64,000 nucleotides of DNA from Thermoplasmata archaeon (GCA_023261755.1 JAGDXS010000019.1:653-64652); one strand, 5' to 3'. Positions 9,651 through 37,297 are shown, counted from the first letter of the stretch. The notes: a model not told the origin generated them from the sequence alone. Translations and numbers: made by a program.

Positions 9651-10583
9651 ATGAGGAAAATGAAATGCTCAAGGTGTAATAAAGATGCAGTAATTTACGT
9701 TAGATACAATGGAGAGCATTTGTGTAGAGAGCATTTTATAGAATTTCTTGAATCAAGGGTAAAGCATGAATTAAGAAATCAAGTAAATCTTAAACCTGGT
9801 GATAGAATCATTGTTGGTGTATCTGGAGGTAAAGATAGTACCACAACTGCCTATCTTTTAAAAAAAATTCTTTCACATAGGAGGGATATTGAAATAATTG
9901 CTGTAACAATTGATGAAGGGATTGATGGTTACAGGAATATAGCACTTGAAAAACTCATACCATTTATGAAAAAGATTGGAATTGAGCATCATGTATTCAG
10001 TTTCAAGGATTATTTTAATTATACCATGGATGAAATTTCAAGAATTGACAAGGATCTTGTTCCTTGCACATACTGCGGTGTTTTCAGAAGAAATTTATTG
10101 AACATAGCTGCTAAAAAGCTAAATGGTAATTATGTTGCAACGGGCCTTAATCTGGACGATACAGCTCAAAGCATAATAATGAACTTTGTAAGGGGTGACC
10201 TTGATAGACTGGCTAGGCTGGGGCCACATACAATCATCAAGGAGGATCTTGTACCAAGGATTCAACCATTGAGGAAAATACCTGAAAAGGAGGTACTTCT
10301 ATACGCAATTCTTAATAATATTGAATTTTACCATGGTACCTGCCCTTATGCGGATCTTGCTTTAAGAAATCAGTTCAGGGAGGCAGTAGACAACTGGGAG
10401 AACAGGTCACCAGGATCGAGGCACGCCATACTTTCTGTCTATGACCAAATGAAGGACATGTTGATGCAAAAATACAAGGATTTTAAATTAAATAAATGTG
10501 AAATATGCGGTGAACCTACTGTGGGGAAGATATGCAAATCGTGTGAACTTAAGTTGAGGCTTGAAAATATTCAGAAGGTATAA
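9651..10583 (+). CDS. tRNA 2-thiolation PP-loop ATPase (TtuA/NcsA-like)
   Basis: 310 aa; PP-loop GVSGGKDS; N-terminal CSRCNK...CREH and C-terminal CEICGE...CKSC zinc fingers; internal CTYCGVFRR. Confidence 0.85.
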   Translation: MRKMKCSRCNKDAVIYVRYNGEHLCREHFIEFLESRVKHELRNQVNLKPGDRIIVGVSGGKDSTTTAYLLKKILSHRRDIEIIAVTIDEGIDGYRNIALEKLIPFMKKIGIEHHVFSFKDYFNYTMDEISRIDKDLVPCTYCGVFRRNLLNIAAKKLNGNYVATGLNLDDTAQSIIMNFVRGDLDRLARLGPHTIIKEDLVPRIQPLRKIPEKEVLLYAILNNIEFYHGTCPYADLALRNQFREAVDNWENRSPGSRHAILSVYDQMKDMLMQKYKDFKLNKCEICGEPTVGKICKSCELKLRLENIQKV

Positions 10584-11917
10584 TTATTTGGATTAATCTT
10601 TCTTAAAATTAAGTCAGCAGCCATATTTATTACATCATAAAGATCCGACACTTCCGGGCAATATGCAATTTCCAGTGCGCTCAAATCTTCTGCAGAGGCC
10701 TTTTTTCTTATTGCAAGGGAAATGACATTTATTTTTGATGATGCATTTTTTCCTACTGCCTGAGCTCCTAGAATAGTGCCATTATTTTTATCACAAACTA
10801 TTTTTAGCGTTATTTCTTCACCGCCAGCATATTCAGGTCTGTCGAGTGTTTTTGCCCTTGCAGTTACGATCTGAAATTTTTCTTTTGCCTGGTTTTCCGT
10901 TAAGCCAACAGCTGCAACTTCTAAATTGCCGACCATGGAAACAAAGGTGCCAAGCGCTCCTGAATATGTTGCATCATGACCTGCCAAGTTTATACCAGCA
11001 ACTATGCCCTGCTTTGCAGCTGTTGTTGCAAGCTGAACAGGTGCATATGATCCATCAACATAATTCTTGGTAATAATGCAGTCTCCTGCAGCATATATAT
11101 CAGGATTCGATGTTTGCATTTTATCATTTACAACTATGAATGATCTATCCATGTTAACAATGTTTTTCAATATTTCAGTACTTGGCCTTACGCCTGTGGC
11201 AAGAATTATTGCATCTGCATTGAAAATAGAATCACCTGATCTTATGCCAATGATTCTGTTATTTTCAACAACAATTTCATCCACTTTTGAATTAAGGTGA
11301 ATTGAGATGCCAAATTTTTCTAATTCATTTTTAACAATTTCAGCCATTTCAGGATCTAGAACCCTAGGAAAAGGTTGAGGAAACATTTCAAACACATGAA
11401 CATTTAAATTCCATGATTTAAGTGCATATGCCATCTCAAGGCCTATGGCTCCTGCGCCTACAACAGAAACATTTTTTATATTTTTCTTAACAATGAAATC
11501 TTTTATAGAATTTGCATCCTCTAGCGTTTTTACTATGAAAACACCTTTATTTATGAATCCATCTGCATTCTTTATTTTAGGTATTAATGGCTCAGCACCT
11601 GCGGCATATAATAATTTATCATATTTGATTTCTTTAATTTCATTATTCTTTTTATTAAGAACTTTAATCTTTTTTTCTGATGCATTTATTTCTATCGCCT
11701 CATATTCGAGGAGAACATTAATTCTCCTTGTTCTTGGAAAAGGATGCTTCAGTTTAGAAAAATCATCCTTTCTTTCAAGAATCAAGGGTATTCCACAAGG
11801 TGAATAAGATTCATAACTGTGCTTTTCTATAATTGTTATTTCCTCCTCCCTGTTTAATGTGGTAATCCACCTTGTTGCATAAACACCGGCTGTGCCTAGG
11901 CCTATAATAACGATCAT
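10571..11917 (-). CDS. CoA-disulfide reductase / NADH oxidase family flavoprotein
   Basis: 448 aa; IIGLGTAG and VVGAGAIGLE dinucleotide folds, single redox Cys in YSPCGIP, YAAGDC. Confidence 0.85.
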   Translation of the reverse strand: MIVIIGLGTAGVYATRWITTLNREEEITIIEKHSYESYSPCGIPLILERKDDFSKLKHPFPRTRRINVLLEYEAIEINASEKKIKVLNKKNNEIKEIKYDKLLYAAGAEPLIPKIKNADGFINKGVFIVKTLEDANSIKDFIVKKNIKNVSVVGAGAIGLEMAYALKSWNLNVHVFEMFPQPFPRVLDPEMAEIVKNELEKFGISIHLNSKVDEIVVENNRIIGIRSGDSIFNADAIILATGVRPSTEILKNIVNMDRSFIVVNDKMQTSNPDIYAAGDCIITKNYVDGSYAPVQLATTAAKQGIVAGINLAGHDATYSGALGTFVSMVGNLEVAAVGLTENQAKEKFQIVTARAKTLDRPEYAGGEEITLKIVCDKNNGTILGAQAVGKNASSKINVISLAIRKKASAEDLSALEIAYCPEVSDLYDVINMAADLILRKINPNNYTF

Positions 11918-16870: not shown

Positions 16871-17200
16871 ATTTTTCAATCATAGTGATGGATTTTGCAA
16901 TTCTTATTATGGGAATTTTAACATTTCTTATGCCAGATCTTCTTCCGAAAACCCTGCAATCCGGTGTGAGAATACCTCCTGAATATGCAAATGATTTATT
17001 GATCAAAAAATTAAATTATGCTTTAGAATTTATATATCAATTTTAACCGGAATAACCATTTTCTAACAATATTTTCAGGCTTGTATGTGCAGTTAATTCT
17101 ATTGTTCTTGTTCATTGTTCTTACATACATGGCCTACTATATAGCTCACAGAAGGATACACAAAGAGAAAATAATAAAAAAATGGTATGAGAATATTTAG
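16867..17200 (+). pseudogene. fragmented membrane-protein gene (three short hydrophobic frames)
   Basis: A 59-aa ORF is coupled to the GntR stop (ATGA): MNFSIIVMDFAILIMGILTFLMPDLLPKTLQSGVRIPPEY..., stop at 17046. It is followed in other frames by ...RIYISILTGITIF* and ...LILLFLFIVLTYMAYYIAHRRIHKEKIIKKWYENI* (stop 17198-17200). Confidence 0.4.
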
Positions 17201-17216
17201 TAAAAAGTGATCTCCT

Positions 17217-17236
17217 CCCATCATTGAAATGATGGG
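17217..17236. repeat. perfect 8-bp-stem hairpin at the end of the TnpB-like remnant
   Basis: cccatcat-tgaa-atgatggg; overlaps the stop of the minus-strand remnant ORF. Confidence 0.6.
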
Positions 17237-31626: not shown

Positions 31627-31694
31627 GATTATTAGATAAATGAAATCGTTTAAAATATTTTTCATGCATTAGTTAAAATATTTTTTAATTTGAA

Positions 31695-33424: not shown

Positions 33425-33841
33425 TCACCAGGGACCGCCTCTTCCTCTACCCATACCTCTTCCCCTTCCCATTCCATGACCACCTGGACCACCCATACCT
33501 GTGGAAGGTTGTAATTTACCAGATAAATATGCATTTATTGCCTCCTCCACAATCATGGGTGGGCATTCGCGCATATCGATTCTTCCCATTGAAAGTACCT
33601 GGAATGAGTTAGGACCTATTGCACCTGCAATAAGAACATTGCATCCTGAATTTATAACTGCCTGAGCGGCCTGAATGCCCGCTCCACTTCCTGCCATGTA
33701 CCCAGGATTTTGTATAACCTGGACATTTTTGATGGACCCATTTTCATAATCCACTAAAGTGAAAGTTGGACATCTGCCAAAATTAGCACTAACATAATCC
33801 TTCAAACCACCAGGTCCAGAAGTGGCTAAACATATCTTCAT
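33425..33841 (-). CDS. NifX/NifB-C-terminal-like (dinitrogenase FeMo-cofactor-binding fold) protein with Gly-Arg tail
   Basis: 138 aa; NFGRCPTFTLVDYENG...NVLIAGAIGPN; tail GMGGPGGHGMGRGRGMGRGRGGPW. Confidence 0.8.
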   Translation of the reverse strand: MKICLATSGPGGLKDYVSANFGRCPTFTLVDYENGSIKNVQVIQNPGYMAGSGAGIQAAQAVINSGCNVLIAGAIGPNSFQVLSMGRIDMRECPPMIVEEAINAYLSGKLQPSTGMGGPGGHGMGRGRGMGRGRGGPW

Positions 33842-33975
33842 ATAAAAATCACCATTGACGGAAATACAAAAAGATAAATAAATTTTGTTAAGATTTTAGT
33901 ATAATTAAAACGCTTCTTCGAGCGAAATTTATAATTTTATTAGAAAAATTTTAAATAAAAAAATCAATTACATTC

Positions 33976-33986
33976 AGGTGGAGGAG
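33976..33986 (+). promoter_or_regulatory. strong Shine-Dalgarno AGGTGGAGGAG for the first cassette gene
   Basis: Lies 5 nt upstream of ATG 33992. Confidence 0.55.
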
Positions 33987-33991
33987 ATAAC

Positions 33992-34540
33992 ATGGGTGAT
34001 TGGTCATTAGAAAATTTAGAGAATCTAAAAGAGGAGCCTGAAAGAAAGTATGTAGAAACAAGAACTTTATTAATTTTAGCTGTGACAGGAATATTTCTAG
34101 GGGTATCTTTAATTACACCATTTGCCCATGGAGACAATATTTCGTATGATAATATTTCAGATGCAAAGGTGACAGTATATAATTTATATGGGATAATAGT
34201 TGGAACAATAGATGGAAAATGGACTTTTGCAGTGGATACGTCCAACAATCAGTTTTATTTAAATAATCAGAATACTTTCTTCTATACCCATCATTCGAGT
34301 GCATGGTTATGGAGCTCTGATATTAATAACCTATACGTCTCTACCACAAATAATGAGCTGTATGCTACTTATATTTGGTCGGTTTCCTCTGCGTTGAGTA
34401 GTATTTCAGGTTCCACAATTAATCAGGTCAGTCTAAATCCTGGAAATGTAGTCAATATTTACATAGAGCAGTATGGTCAAGTGCAATATAATAATGATTT
34501 ACTATTACCTGTTGATGTATCTTTAGATCTAGATATTTGA
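33992..34540 (+). CDS. hypothetical N-terminally anchored surface protein
   Basis: 182 aa; charged N-terminus, one TM (TLLILAVTGIFLGVSLI), then an Asn/Ser/Thr/Tyr-rich domain with NIS sequons. No family recognised. Confidence 0.6.
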   Translation: MGDWSLENLENLKEEPERKYVETRTLLILAVTGIFLGVSLITPFAHGDNISYDNISDAKVTVYNLYGIIVGTIDGKWTFAVDTSNNQFYLNNQNTFFYTHHSSAWLWSSDINNLYVSTTNNELYATYIWSVSSALSSISGSTINQVSLNPGNVVNIYIEQYGQVQYNNDLLLPVDVSLDLDI

Positions 34541-34582
34541 AAAATTTTTTGAATTTTTCATTATTTTTTTTTGGTGGTATAA

Positions 34583-35428
34583 ATGAAAAAACAAACATAT
34601 AAAAACAAGAAAAATAGTATGAATAAAATTATAAATAATTTACTCGTTATAATATTAATAGGCTTTGGGGCCGGCATTGGATTTTTGCCTATGATGGAAT
34701 ATTATAGCGGGCCATACCATGCTGAAACTTATTATAATAGTATACGTGCCGGTTCAGGATTCACATTCGTAGGAACGGTAGGTGGTTATAATAATTCTAG
34801 CAGATCTGGATTTACCTATGGCTTTTTAATCAATGTCACATTTTTAAACACCAATGAAGCACAGGTTTACATTACTGTATTTCAACTCCCTGAAAATGCC
34901 GGTTATTTTAATATTTTTCTTTTGCCAAAAAATCCTTTTTATCCAGAACCTATCAAAATAGATCAGTTTAATTACAAAACTAGCATTTCTTCATCTCCTT
35001 TACTTAAACTACTTTTCCTAAGCACTTATAGCAGTGATACATTAATTGGAAACATAACGTTAAATAGGACAAATTTCAATATGCAACCTTATCCTAACTT
35101 TGGAATGCCCAACCTTAATTATATTGTTGTTAATGGCATTAATACGCCTTTTTTTTACATCTTATATGAGAATTTTAGGGTTCTGGGTTATTTAGCTGAA
35201 ATGCCACATTTAATAAATTTCTTACCTTTAATTAAAGATATCTATCCTGGAGCTAATTATTCTAAATTGAACTGTCAGATTTTTACTATTCAATTTGGCT
35301 CAAGCAATACTGCACCACCACAAAATTGGGCTGCATTCTATATGTGGGGATTTGGGATGGCATTTCCATTGGACATTATAATTATAGCAGCTGGAATAAT
35401 TCTATATGTTATGAGATTCAGAAGGTGA
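34583..35428 (+). CDS. hypothetical surface protein with N- and C-terminal TM anchors
   Basis: 281 aa; LLVIILIGFGAGIGFL... and ...DIIIIAAGIILYVMRFRR; sequons NNS, NVT, NIT, NRT, NYS. GGTGG (34573-34577) lies upstream of the ATG. Confidence 0.6.
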   Translation: MKKQTYKNKKNSMNKIINNLLVIILIGFGAGIGFLPMMEYYSGPYHAETYYNSIRAGSGFTFVGTVGGYNNSSRSGFTYGFLINVTFLNTNEAQVYITVFQLPENAGYFNIFLLPKNPFYPEPIKIDQFNYKTSISSSPLLKLLFLSTYSSDTLIGNITLNRTNFNMQPYPNFGMPNLNYIVVNGINTPFFYILYENFRVLGYLAEMPHLINFLPLIKDIYPGANYSKLNCQIFTIQFGSSNTAPPQNWAAFYMWGFGMAFPLDIIIIAAGIILYVMRFRR

Positions 35429-35432
35429 ACTG

Positions 35433-36260
35433 ATGAAACTTATTTTTGAACATTTATTTAAATATTTGAATAATAACCTAATCCTGAAAGACATAGATTT
35501 TTCATTAGAATCAAGAAAGCTAGCAATTATAGGGCACAATGGAAGTGGTAAAACTACACTTTTATCTTTAATTGCGGGTCTATTAAAACCTGATGAAGGA
35601 TATGTAAGTATTGACGGAATAGAACCATTTTTCGAAAGGGAAAAAATTGTAAAACACTTATCTTTTATATTTGAAAAAGGTAATTATTCTTATAATATGA
35701 GTGTAGGTAATTATGTTAAAATTCTTAAAAAAATAAGAGATGAAAAATATGTTAATGATATAGCAGATATTTTAGAATTATCAAAATTTGAGAATGCAAA
35801 TATGAAGGAATTATCAACAGGCCAAGCTCAGCTGGTTTATCTTTTATCAGTCCTTACTTCCAATAAAAAAATCATAATTTTGGATGAACCCTTTAGCCAT
35901 CTTGACCCTGGTAGGTATATAAAAATAACTAAATTTATTCAGAATATGGAAAAAGACTTCATATTAGCTACCCAGAGTTTTAATGAGGCGGAGGAATTAT
36001 GCGATGAATATATAGTACTAAAAGAAGGAGAAATATTATGGAAAGGATCAAAAAAAGATTTATACAAGAATAATTTATTTGAAATTTACTTAAATGAAAA
36101 TAATATTCCAGGCCTAAATGTCATATCAGATATGGGGAAAGTTTTAATTGCAGAGGCTAGAATTGATTATTTAGTAAAATTGTTAGAAGATGGAAAAATA
36201 TTAGGTTTTAAAAGAGCGGGTTTAAGGAGGATATATGGCGAAATTAACTTATTCAACTGA
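35433..36260 (+). CDS. ABC transporter ATP-binding protein (degenerate signature)
   Basis: 275 aa; Walker A GHNGSGKTT, signature LSTGQ (instead of LSGGQ), Walker B IIILDEPFSHLD. AGGTGA (35423-35428) overlaps the upstream stop. Confidence 0.85.
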   Translation: MKLIFEHLFKYLNNNLILKDIDFSLESRKLAIIGHNGSGKTTLLSLIAGLLKPDEGYVSIDGIEPFFEREKIVKHLSFIFEKGNYSYNMSVGNYVKILKKIRDEKYVNDIADILELSKFENANMKELSTGQAQLVYLLSVLTSNKKIIILDEPFSHLDPGRYIKITKFIQNMEKDFILATQSFNEAEELCDEYIVLKEGEILWKGSKKDLYKNNLFEIYLNENNIPGLNVISDMGKVLIAEARIDYLVKLLEDGKILGFKRAGLRRIYGEINLFN

Positions 36261-36924
36261 ATGGTATCTTAAAACAATAATCATCCATCCTGTTTATGAA
36301 ATAATTTTAGTATTTTCTATTTTAATCGAACTATTATTATTAGATTTAAAATATTTTAATGATTTTTTAATATTAATGATTATTTTTCTTCTTCCTTTAT
36401 TTCAAACATTGGTTGGGACGGGTATTTTTAGGGATATGCATTTGAAAGTTTTTGAAATTAGCCTTATGGAAGGATATTTCAATATAACATTTTCAAAGTC
36501 AGTTGCTCTATTAATTTCATATATTCCATTCTTTATTGCAGAATTATTGATAATGGTAATATTTCATATCACCTCTTTTTTTGTTCCTTTGGTTCTCAGT
36601 TCTCTTTTAGCTATTGTAATCTCTTTACTTCTTTCTATTTCATCCAATGCCTCTTTTTCATTTACAGCTCTGGCAATATTTATGTTTATATTTCCAATAG
36701 GTGTTCAAATATATATTCAAAATTTGGCTCAATTAAATCAACAACCTGATTTAATTACATCATCCATTTCCTATATCCTTAGTCCTTTAGTGGCATACCA
36801 ATATTGGAAATTAAGATTTATAGAGCTTAGCCCATTTTATGGATTTTTGTTAGATGTTATTTTTATTATAATCCTTTACGTACTATATTTATTAATTTCT
36901 ATGAGGCATCAAATCAAACCCTAG
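36235..36924 (+). CDS. polytopic membrane protein (presumed transporter partner)
   Basis: 229 aa, 5-6 TM. AAGGAGG (36224-36230) lies 4 nt upstream of the ATG. 26-nt overlap with the ATPase gene. Confidence 0.6.
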   Translation: MAKLTYSTEWYLKTIIIHPVYEIILVFSILIELLLLDLKYFNDFLILMIIFLLPLFQTLVGTGIFRDMHLKVFEISLMEGYFNITFSKSVALLISYIPFFIAELLIMVIFHITSFFVPLVLSSLLAIVISLLLSISSNASFSFTALAIFMFIFPIGVQIYIQNLAQLNQQPDLITSSISYILSPLVAYQYWKLRFIELSPFYGFLLDVIFIIILYVLYLLISMRHQIKP

Positions 36925-37012
36925 TATTTTGTAAATTTACCAATTTTCTTTATTTTTATAATTATAAATTAATTATAAGCTTAATGCATTAAAATATTAG
37001 ATAATCGCACTT

Positions 37013-37029
37013 AAAAAAAAATAAAAAAA
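37013..37029 (-). terminator. oligo-T tract after the DUF5320-like gene
   Basis: The plus strand reads aaaaaaaaataaaaaaa, i.e. T7-A-T9 on the minus strand directly after the stop at 37031. Archaeal termination typically uses oligo-T. Confidence 0.4.
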
Positions 37030-37030
37030 T

Positions 37031-37297
37031 TTATTTTTCTAGGTCTTCTAGTCTTTTTCTTATATAATTCATTCTTTCTTGAAGATATTTTAGTTCATTT
37101 TCAAGTGCGGTTTTTTCATCCACTGGCTGAAATCCATAGTTAGTTCCTGTAGCCATATTTTGATTCCAAGGATATTGAGTGTAATTCTGATATGGATAGT
37201 TCCATCTCCACCCCCTTGGCAGACCTGTCCAAGGGCAATAGCCTAGAGTAGCTCCCCATCCTCTACCTCTTCCACCATACCATCCTGGTCCATACAT
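37031..37297 (-). CDS. DUF5320-like Gly/Arg/Trp-rich protein with C-terminal coiled coil
   Basis: 88 aa; MYGPGWYGGRGRGWGATLGYCPWTGLPRGWRW... then EKTALENELKYLQERMNYIRKRLEDLEK. Confidence 0.7.
   Translation of the reverse strand: MYGPGWYGGRGRGWGATLGYCPWTGLPRGWRWNYPYQNYTQYPWNQNMATGTNYGFQPVDEKTALENELKYLQERMNYIRKRLEDLEK

Follow-up and report, generated by a model that had tools for sequence, protein, structure and literature searches.

Within a 64,000-nt stretch of a Thermoplasmata archaeon genome (GCA_023261755.1, JAGDXS010000019.1:653-64652; hereafter the window, with positions counted from its first nucleotide), we characterized a four-gene cassette that interrupts a conserved cluster of Fe-S genes, the DUF5320-NifX-MinD gene module. 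Its genes encode a small N-terminally anchored protein (g1), a protein anchored in the membrane at both ends (g2), an ATP-binding cassette (ABC) ATPase (g3) and a polytopic membrane protein (g4). Our analysis indicates that the cassette is probably a horizontally acquired accessory operon encoding a non-canonical ABC membrane machine.

Insertion of the cassette into a conserved gene module

We located the NifX-like gene in related genomes, retrieved the surrounding DNA, and mapped all window genes by tblastn. Each of the six congeneric genomes (G001-G006) has the DUF5320 gene next to the NifX-MinD-MinD genes, about 60 bp upstream, and lacks the ~3.14-kb segment that carries the cassette in the window; at this site the segment is present in the source species alone, in two assemblies. 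Moreover, no homologue of g1 or g2 was found anywhere in the six congeneric genomes. The synteny comparison bears out the suggestion of a first-pass annotation of the window that the cassette is an insertion splitting this module: it is not kept at this position in any congener. The closest genomes, G002 and G005, encode RtcB proteins 92-93% identical to that of the window, and their FtsZ-RtcB-peptidase-DUF5320-NifX-MinD-MinD...BCAT gene order is collinear with the window, the cassette excepted.

To define the junctions, we aligned the sequences flanking the cassette in the window to the 57-bp spacer that separates DUF5320 from NifX in G002 and G005. Since the alignment breaks within ~6 bp of the DUF5320 stop codon and the 52 bp upstream of the NifX start are kept in the window, where they can be aligned to the congeners, the inserted segment can be placed at about 33894-37030. 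The retained 52 bp include a TATA-like element, from which NifX could still be driven. The cassette is also present, at this very position and with 99.55% identity, in a conspecific metagenome-assembled genome (MAG; GCA_049967835.1), whose left flank shows equal identity. The two copies differ by eight synonymous and five non-synonymous changes, too few for an informative ratio of synonymous to non-synonymous substitution (dS/dN). Overall, these data strongly support an insertion gained in the lineage of one Thermoplasmata species. The insertion itself is well established and of a kind that is ordinary in nature; here it represents a clean, recent gene gain by a streamlined archaeal genome of 1.2 Mb, in which a conserved operon was split.

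All four plus-strand open reading frames (ORFs; 33992-36924) are intact, with coordinates exactly as first annotated. Their Shine-Dalgarno (SD) motifs were likewise found where they had been reported, at 34573-34577, 35423-35428 and 36224-36230 in addition to that of g1 (Table 1). A 5-mer SD core occurs at positions -17 to -4 of all four starts; such a core is found upstream of 27% of the genome's long ORFs, and random 14-nt segments of the genome contain one with a frequency of 3.3% (p = 0.033). The genes are tightly coupled, as had been noted: the g2 stop codon lies inside the g3 SD motif, with a 4-nt gap, and the last 26 nt of g3 are shared with g4. The AT-rich 5' region of the cassette presumably contains its promoter, and shows no homology to the region upstream of the closest related cassette, L030. 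Scans for sigma-70 promoters and hairpin terminators, models that are not applicable to archaea, revealed no enrichment. Finally, the cassette has a GC content of 28.3%, compared to 32.6% for the genome, and GC content at third codon positions in all four genes falls inside the genome range (7.8th-53rd percentile); base composition is therefore a weak sign of foreign origin.

Table 1. Features of the inserted segment and its flanks, and other loci that carry the cassette
Feature or locus	Coordinates	Strand	Description
Inserted segment	33894-37030	+	~3.14 kb; own 5' region, four genes and 3' spacer; from junction alignments
Cassette 5' region	33894-33991	+	AT-rich; TATA-like tttaaata near 33950; read from sequence
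g1 SD motif, AGGTGGAGGAG	33976-33986	+	Read from sequence
g1	33992-34540	+	ORF, 182 aa
g2	34583-35428	+	ORF, 281 aa
g3	35433-36260	+	ORF, 275 aa
g4	36235-36924	+	ORF, 229 aa
Convergent spacer	36925-37030	.	106 bp; plus-strand T-tracts at 36927, 36944 and 36953; minus-strand T-tracts (A-runs at 37013-37029)
Left flank, NifX-like gene (PF02579), then two MinD/Fer4 ATPase genes	33425-33841	-	Pfam
Right flank, DUF5320 gene	37031-37297	-	Pfam; insertion point at most ~6 bp from stop codon
L030			Joint Genome Institute (JGI) metagenome contig; 61-67% identity to window cassette; carries g1
L044			Thermoplasmata MAG HSP1.bin27; carries g1
L045			Thermococcus MAG; without g1
G008/L046			Thermoplasmatota TVZ.SD19.217; g2-g3-g4
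L047			Thermoplasmata MAG LSA5.bin89; without g1
L048			Thermococcus profundus; g2-g3-g4
G176			Thermoplasmatales archaeon B_DKE / Ca. Scheffleriplasma hospitalis; carries g1; cassette at about 1,179,400-1,182,500 of the 1,959,588-bp genome
G197, G223			Cassettes with g1

Recurrence and mobility of the g2-g3-g4 module

Outside the window, the g2-g3-g4 gene order is repeated at no fewer than 14 loci in Thermoplasmata and Thermococcaceae (including L030, L044, L045, L046/G008, L047, G197, G176, G223, T. profundus, G433, G439, G450 and G459), and the start/stop overlaps between module genes are maintained across these loci. The module is carried by five of the 401 sampled Thermoplasmata genomes and by 15 of the 97 Thermococcaceae genomes. 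It is also found in the cultured species T. waiotapuensis and T. guaymasensis; together with T. profundus and Ca. Scheffleriplasma hospitalis B_DKE, these cultured carriers make the system experimentally approachable. We found no mention in the literature of the locus tags of the Thermococcus homologues. Genomic context differs at every cassette locus examined: in G008 the neighbours are genes for the proteasome and aCPSF1, in G197 they are genes of methionine salvage and AbiE-like genes, and in T. profundus those for TiaS and deoxyhypusine synthase.

A tree of g3 pairs the window with L030, and next with L044. G008 is in the same family as the window, yet in the tree it pairs with G197 of another family (66% g3 identity, versus 38% between G008 and the window). 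This disagreement with taxonomy points to horizontal transfer. In G223 (L041 2472-5162), a 564-aa insertion sequence (IS)-type transposase gene and a 106-aa ORF lie inside g4, of which the C-terminal 146 codons alone remain; this disruption is direct evidence that cells can do without the module. Moreover, none of the Thermococcaceae cassettes examined contains g1, and some of those in Thermoplasmata lack it as well (loci without g1 include L045 and L047), which identifies g2-g3-g4 as the core. The cassette is, in sum, a horizontally mobile, conserved accessory unit to which g1 is an add-on.

We also asked whether the segment is a self-mobile element. It contains no transposase or integrase gene between 33894 and 37030, no terminal inverted repeats and no convincing target-site duplication; the sole direct repeat at its ends is an AT-rich 17-mer (33868-33884 versus 37015-37031, 88% identical). 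No tRNA gene lies within the window, the cassette shows no phage or plasmid similarity, and a PHROG scan of the cassette returned matches to the ATPase only. An IS, an integrative element and a provirus were thus each rejected.

Separately, our reading of ORFs around two of the cassettes would suggest surroundings like those of defence islands: an AbiEi/AbiEii-like pair in G197 (L040 8841-10162), and an AAA-ATPase fragment with a DUF4276-like ORF beside the cassette in L047 (3-751).

Properties of the four cassette proteins

g2 contains a transmembrane (TM) helix at its N-terminus and another at its C-terminus by hydropathy, with an ectodomain of ~200 aa between them; the structure model described below agrees, upholding its annotation as a 281-aa protein anchored at both ends. 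The protein is bitopic, with an N-in/C-in topology and Lys/Arg-rich cytoplasmic ends. When 1.84 billion representatives were searched exhaustively with HMMER, 48 g2 clusters were identified, all of 250-340 aa and some from Thermoprotei MAGs. No Pfam family is common to 40 g2 members at E <= 1, searches of g2 against Pfam, NCBIfam, PADLOC, PHROGs and PDB sequences gave no match, and no copies were found outside cassettes. The most conserved residues of g2 are membrane-proximal: P36 and Y45 follow the first TM helix, and N242, P245, Q247 and W249 precede the second, within a conserved GN(T/S)xPxQ(D/N)W motif directly ahead of the C-terminal TM helix. A YYFG region is conserved in g2 as well. Conservation beside both TM helices suggests an interface with a membrane partner. 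g2 family members have a mean of 6.8 N-glycosylation sequons per protein, or 2.48 per 100 aa versus 1.05 expected from composition (2.4-fold), an excess that fits an N-glycosylated domain on the outer face of the membrane. Several sequons had been ascribed to both surface proteins; this holds for g2 of the window, whose six sequons place it at the 95th percentile, but not for g1, which has only two. The enrichment in Asn, Ser, Thr and Tyr was confirmed for both proteins: these residues make up 35.7% of g1 and 30.2% of g2, versus 21.1 +/- 4.3% in the proteome.

We modeled g2 with AlphaFold2. A first model, based on a 6-sequence alignment, had a mean per-residue confidence (pLDDT) of 66 and was not informative, while a 40-sequence alignment yielded a confident model (pLDDT 93.4, predicted TM-score (pTM) 0.88). 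The model shows a long N-terminal TM helix, a ~200-residue ectodomain of mainly antiparallel strands, a short helix, and the C-terminal TM helix. The structural search proposed for g2 in the first-pass annotation revealed no significant relative of this model: Foldseek gave nothing at E <= 0.001 against the PDB, and no significant match in BFVD. The best PDB match was to LolA3 (9tp6; E = 2.7e-3, probability 0.30, TM-score 0.19-0.22), and among the weak matches, LolA-like half-barrels and other curved beta sheets predominate. The superpositions are not significant, and we therefore rejected membership of g2 in a LolA-like fold (the LolA, LolB or VioE half-barrel).

These properties bear on the idea that the cassette serves surface-protein export or maintenance, with g1 and g2 as the cargo or clients of an ABC transporter. 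Both proteins are extracytoplasmic, rich in Asn, Ser, Thr and Tyr, and encoded upstream of the transporter genes, which speaks for such a role. However, the topology of g2 suits insertion by Sec/YidC and calls for no ABC exporter, the strongest conservation in the protein is found close to the membrane, where contact with g4 would be expected, g2 is tandemly duplicated in some cassettes in the manner of a subunit, and g1 is optional. The constant association of g2 with an ATPase and a six-TM protein, its ordinary topology and its membrane-proximal conservation together argue that it is a subunit rather than cargo. Surface-protein export, one of the roles first suggested for the cassette, is least compatible with the behaviour of g2, which is that of an obligate subunit prone to duplication and conserved at its interface, and we consider it very unlikely. 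Immunity or maintenance, the other roles put forward there, are conceivable.

In three Thermococcaceae cassettes, L062 (G459), L060 (G439) and L061 (G450), two g2 paralogues are arranged in tandem upstream of g3-g4 or flank these genes. The doubled genes hint at a g2 dimer that is able to become heteromeric.

g3 is an ABC ATPase (PF00005, E = 1.6e-25, 90.7 bits versus a cut-off of 25) with an intact Walker A motif (GHNGSGKTT), signature (LSTGQ), Walker B motif with catalytic Glu (IIILDEP) and D-loop (SHLD). The LSTGQ signature had been described as degenerated; the motif is present as reported (LSSGQ/E in relatives), but it is a mild variant rather than a degenerate one. A C-terminal extension of ~60 aa was confirmed and is conserved in the family alignment. 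More unusual are two other motifs. The canonical Gln of the Q-loop is replaced by Glu (FEK) in most family members, and by Gly in others. The H-loop His is replaced by Gln in the subclade of the window, L030 and L044, while other members keep His. All 25 of the NCBIfam matches listed for g3 fall under their cut-offs (best, 106.7 bits versus 315), so that none of the named ABC ATPase equivalogs, among them ECF EcfA, DrrA, GldA, LptB and CcmA, could be assigned to it. Similarly, matches among PDB sequences are to generic nucleotide-binding domains, and PADLOC returned generic ABC/AAA matches for g3 and none for g1, g2 or g4; we therefore rejected a known anti-virus defence system.

The departures from consensus in the H-loop and the Q-loop would be in keeping with a crippled ATPase, in which case the module would be a sensory, regulatory or purely structural membrane complex that carries out no transport. 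Walker A, Walker B with its catalytic Glu, the D-loop and the signature are nonetheless intact, most family members keep the H-loop His, and the cassette has no linked regulator or kinase. A role of this kind is highly improbable.

g4 is, as annotated, a 229-aa polytopic protein without a recognizable permease motif: hydropathy predicts about six TM helices, and no profile matches it. It is encoded immediately after g3 in every cassette. The g4 family is rare, with 14 clusters among 5.8 billion proteins, all labeled hypothetical and none with a Pfam assignment. Five g4 members gave no Pfam match at E <= 10, and g4 had no match among PDB sequences, NCBIfam, PADLOC or PHROGs. An hhalign comparison of an 18-sequence g4 profile with four ABC-2 permeases of the same genome gave probabilities of at most 0.3%, no better than controls that are not ABC-2 permeases. 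Membership in the ABC-2 permeases (ABC2_membrane families) was thus rejected for lack of a profile match. Glu74 of g4, part of an FE motif (FE(L/I)S) in the cytoplasmic loop between TM2 and TM3, is invariant. Judged from its sequence, g4 appears to resemble ABC-2 permeases in its size, six helices, TM2-TM3 Glu, longer outer loop between TM5 and TM6, and coupling to an ATPase gene, a likeness that does not amount to membership.

We also considered an energy-coupling factor (ECF) or CbiMNQO-like importer, with g2 as a CbiN-type subunit and g4 as an S- or T-like component. CbiN is anchored by two TM helices. The top NCBIfam matches of g3 are ECF ATPases (E = 1.4e-30), and g4 has the size of an S component. 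Against this, the ~107 bits of g3 compare with cut-offs of 315-330 and reflect generic similarity, and the cassette encodes a single polytopic protein where ECF systems need both T and S components. Moreover, g4 has no CbiQ/EcfT match in Pfam at E <= 10 and, on reading, no Ala-Arg-Gly coupling motifs, and a separate EcfT-like gene appears, from our reading of ORFs, to lie elsewhere in the genome. Such an importer is extremely unlikely, and membership in the ECF transporters was rejected, neither g4 nor g2 matching CbiQ/EcfT and the cassette holding one polytopic gene.

g1 contains a single N-terminal TM segment at residues 26-44 by hydropathy, which together with its ORF confirms a 182-aa protein anchored at the N-terminus. 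This N-terminus is predicted to act as a signal anchor or signal peptide, followed by a putative beta-rich extracellular domain of ~135 aa. Homologues of g1 are found in L030 (61% identity), L044, G197, G176 and G223, all within cassettes; likewise, a g1 profile matches four of the 401 genomes of the class, each time in a cassette. No paralogue was found in the window's own genome, and no copy outside cassettes. Searches of g1 against Pfam, NCBIfam, PADLOC and PDB sequences gave no match. By hhalign, g1 is unrelated to g2 and to the N-terminally anchored proteins encoded beside the cassettes in G008, L047 and G433. Thus g1, g2 and g4 belong to no described family in Pfam, NCBIfam or PDB-sequence searches, as the first-pass annotation had supposed; a match of the surface proteins to a known family was looked for and did not occur.

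The signal-peptide-like N-terminus of g1, its confinement to cassettes and its position as the first gene of the operon raise the alternative that g1 is a secreted, archaeocin-like antimicrobial, with g2-g3-g4 providing self-immunity or export in the manner of the lantibiotic system LanFEG(+LanI/H) or the bacteriocin ABC immunity systems. The patchy, horizontally mobile distribution of the module is in line with such a pair, as are the neighbouring AbiEi/AbiEii-like genes in G197 and ATPase/DUF4276-like pair in L047 read from ORFs. Yet g2-g3-g4 occurs without g1 in the Thermococcaceae cassettes examined and in L045 and L047, and g1 is unlike any known toxin or bacteriocin. Nor is g1 fast-evolving, with 61% identity to its L030 homologue compared to 65-67% for g2 and g3, and the PADLOC match is limited to the generic ATPase. 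We therefore judge a toxin and immunity pair to be quite unlikely.

Proposed function and comparison with known systems

Overall, we favor a model in which the cassette encodes a non-canonical ABC membrane machine. The operon would have landed just past the DUF5320 stop codon in this species' lineage. g3 would supply the ATPase, presumably as a dimer, and g4 would be its six-helix transmembrane partner, also dimeric. The doubly anchored g2 would hold an N-glycosylated beta ectodomain on the outer membrane face over g4, and g1 would be a small extracellular partner in some Thermoplasmata versions only. In the physical complex so envisaged, a compound that is hydrophobic or associated with the membrane may be exported or extracted in an ATP-driven manner, and the g2 ectodomain would receive or shield it. 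The transport logic would be that of ABC-2, Lpt, Lol or Bce-type systems. That the module is patchily distributed, mobile and lost by IS insertion suggests a conditional trait, for example resistance or immunity, or the handling of surface lipids or glycoconjugates.

Several points weigh against this model. g4 shows no detectable sequence kinship to any ABC permease family, and it is genomic context and topology that mark it as the presumed transmembrane domain of an ABC complex. The Q-loop Glu and H-loop Gln of g3 could indicate slow or regulatory ATP turnover. The acceptor trough suggested for g2 by weak LolA-like matches to its predicted structure is a lead rather than a result, and the neighbours of the cassettes offer no clue to a substrate. 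A more specific proposal is that g2-g3-g4, whether g1 is present or not, represents an undescribed class of archaeal ABC extractor, in which g4 and g2 would be new folds or families and a lipid-linked or membrane-embedded molecule would be moved into a beta trough of g2; as it stands, this is unlikely. Candidate cargoes, taken from the outer face of the monolayer membrane of thermophilic archaea, would include tetraether lipoglycans, glycolipid precursors and membrane-active antibiotics, and the system would then be an archaeal counterpart of Lpt/Lol, a proposal that is doubtful to the same degree.

An ABC ATPase paired with a six-TM partner and an accessory ectodomain protein is a known kind of system, as in GldAFG, NosDFY and LptB2FGC. 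The gliding-motility system GldA-GldF-GldG, an example of ABC-2 (type V) exporters with a doubly anchored auxiliary subunit, likewise comprises a soluble ATPase, a ~230-aa six-TM permease, and a separate protein with N- and C-terminal TM helices and a large ectodomain. GldA is among the top NCBIfam matches of g3, yet far under its cut-off; in addition, g4 has no ABC2_membrane match, g2 has no ABC_transp_aux (PF09822) match and is half the size of GldG, and the cassette system is archaeal and confined to thermophiles. In the lipid and lipoprotein extractors LptB2FG-LptC and LolCDE-LolA, an ABC motor hands hydrophobic cargo to a beta-rich extracytoplasmic acceptor, and LptC resembles g1, an N-terminally anchored, beta-rich protein of ~180 aa, in size and topology. 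However, there is no sequence similarity to these systems and the structural matches of g2 are not significant, so that membership is not supported, and archaea have no outer membrane as a delivery target.

The copper-maturation system NosDFY(L) similarly combines an extracytoplasmic beta protein, an ABC ATPase, a six-TM ABC-2 permease and a small anchored partner in one operon, but the cassette proteins show no similarity to the NosD beta-helix, NosY or NosL, and gene order and the sizes of the extracytoplasmic proteins differ. Resistance transporters of the BceAB/MacB kind (type VII) share with the cassette a large ectodomain between two TM helices, which senses or shields a membrane-associated target, and an accessory, resistance-like distribution. 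Their ectodomain lies within a 4- or 10-TM FtsX-type permease, whereas that of the cassette is a separate two-TM protein, and no cassette protein has an FtsX or MacB_PCD match in Pfam. Finally, the group-I ECF importer CbiMNQO/NikMNQO is akin to the cassette in its small bitopic subunit (CbiN) and homodimeric ATPase, with ECF ATPases as the top g3 matches, but the cassette has no T component, the g2 ectodomain measures ~200 aa versus ~40 aa for CbiN, and there are no family matches.

What is new in the cassette is that its three non-ATPase components form undescribed families, that no solved structure is significantly related to the g2 fold, and that the module occurs in thermophilic archaea only. 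If the cassette does encode an ABC machine with a new membrane domain and a detachable ectodomain subunit, it would widen the range of known ABC architectures. It could also offer insight into how thermophiles that lack a wall or have an S-layer handle surface lipids, glycoconjugates or membrane-active toxins.

Features flanking the cassette

The spacer between g4 and the DUF5320 gene is likely to contain the terminators of both in its T-tracts. Oligo-T tracts serve as terminators in archaea, and by extension may do so here; no hairpin terminator was found in 36925-37030. Two of the 15 convergent gene pairs in the window have a real spacer, and the other 13 abut or overlap. The spacer and its T-tracts are therefore as first annotated, but the pair is not the only one of its kind, as had been stated: a second spacer lies between 16870 and 17221. 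This 350-bp spacer (16871-17220) may contain a small unannotated gene or RNA, although neither ARAGORN nor Rfam, at its gathering threshold, identified a tRNA or RNA family there or elsewhere in the window.

The window differs from its closest relatives in a second membrane-transport gene less than 6 kb from the cassette. Between the second MinD gene and BCAT, G002 (L026 4883-5995) and G005 (L020 ~10366-11573) carry an opposite-strand gene for a 370-aa polytopic protein, which from its sequence appears to be like the major facilitator superfamily (MFS). The corresponding position in the window is a 29-bp spacer (31666-31694). Finally, the NifX-like protein ends in a Gly-Arg-rich C-terminal tail, GMGRGRGMGRGRGGPW (window 33425-33508); a comparable Gly-Arg/Trp-rich segment forms the N-terminus of the DUF5320 protein (37163-37297).

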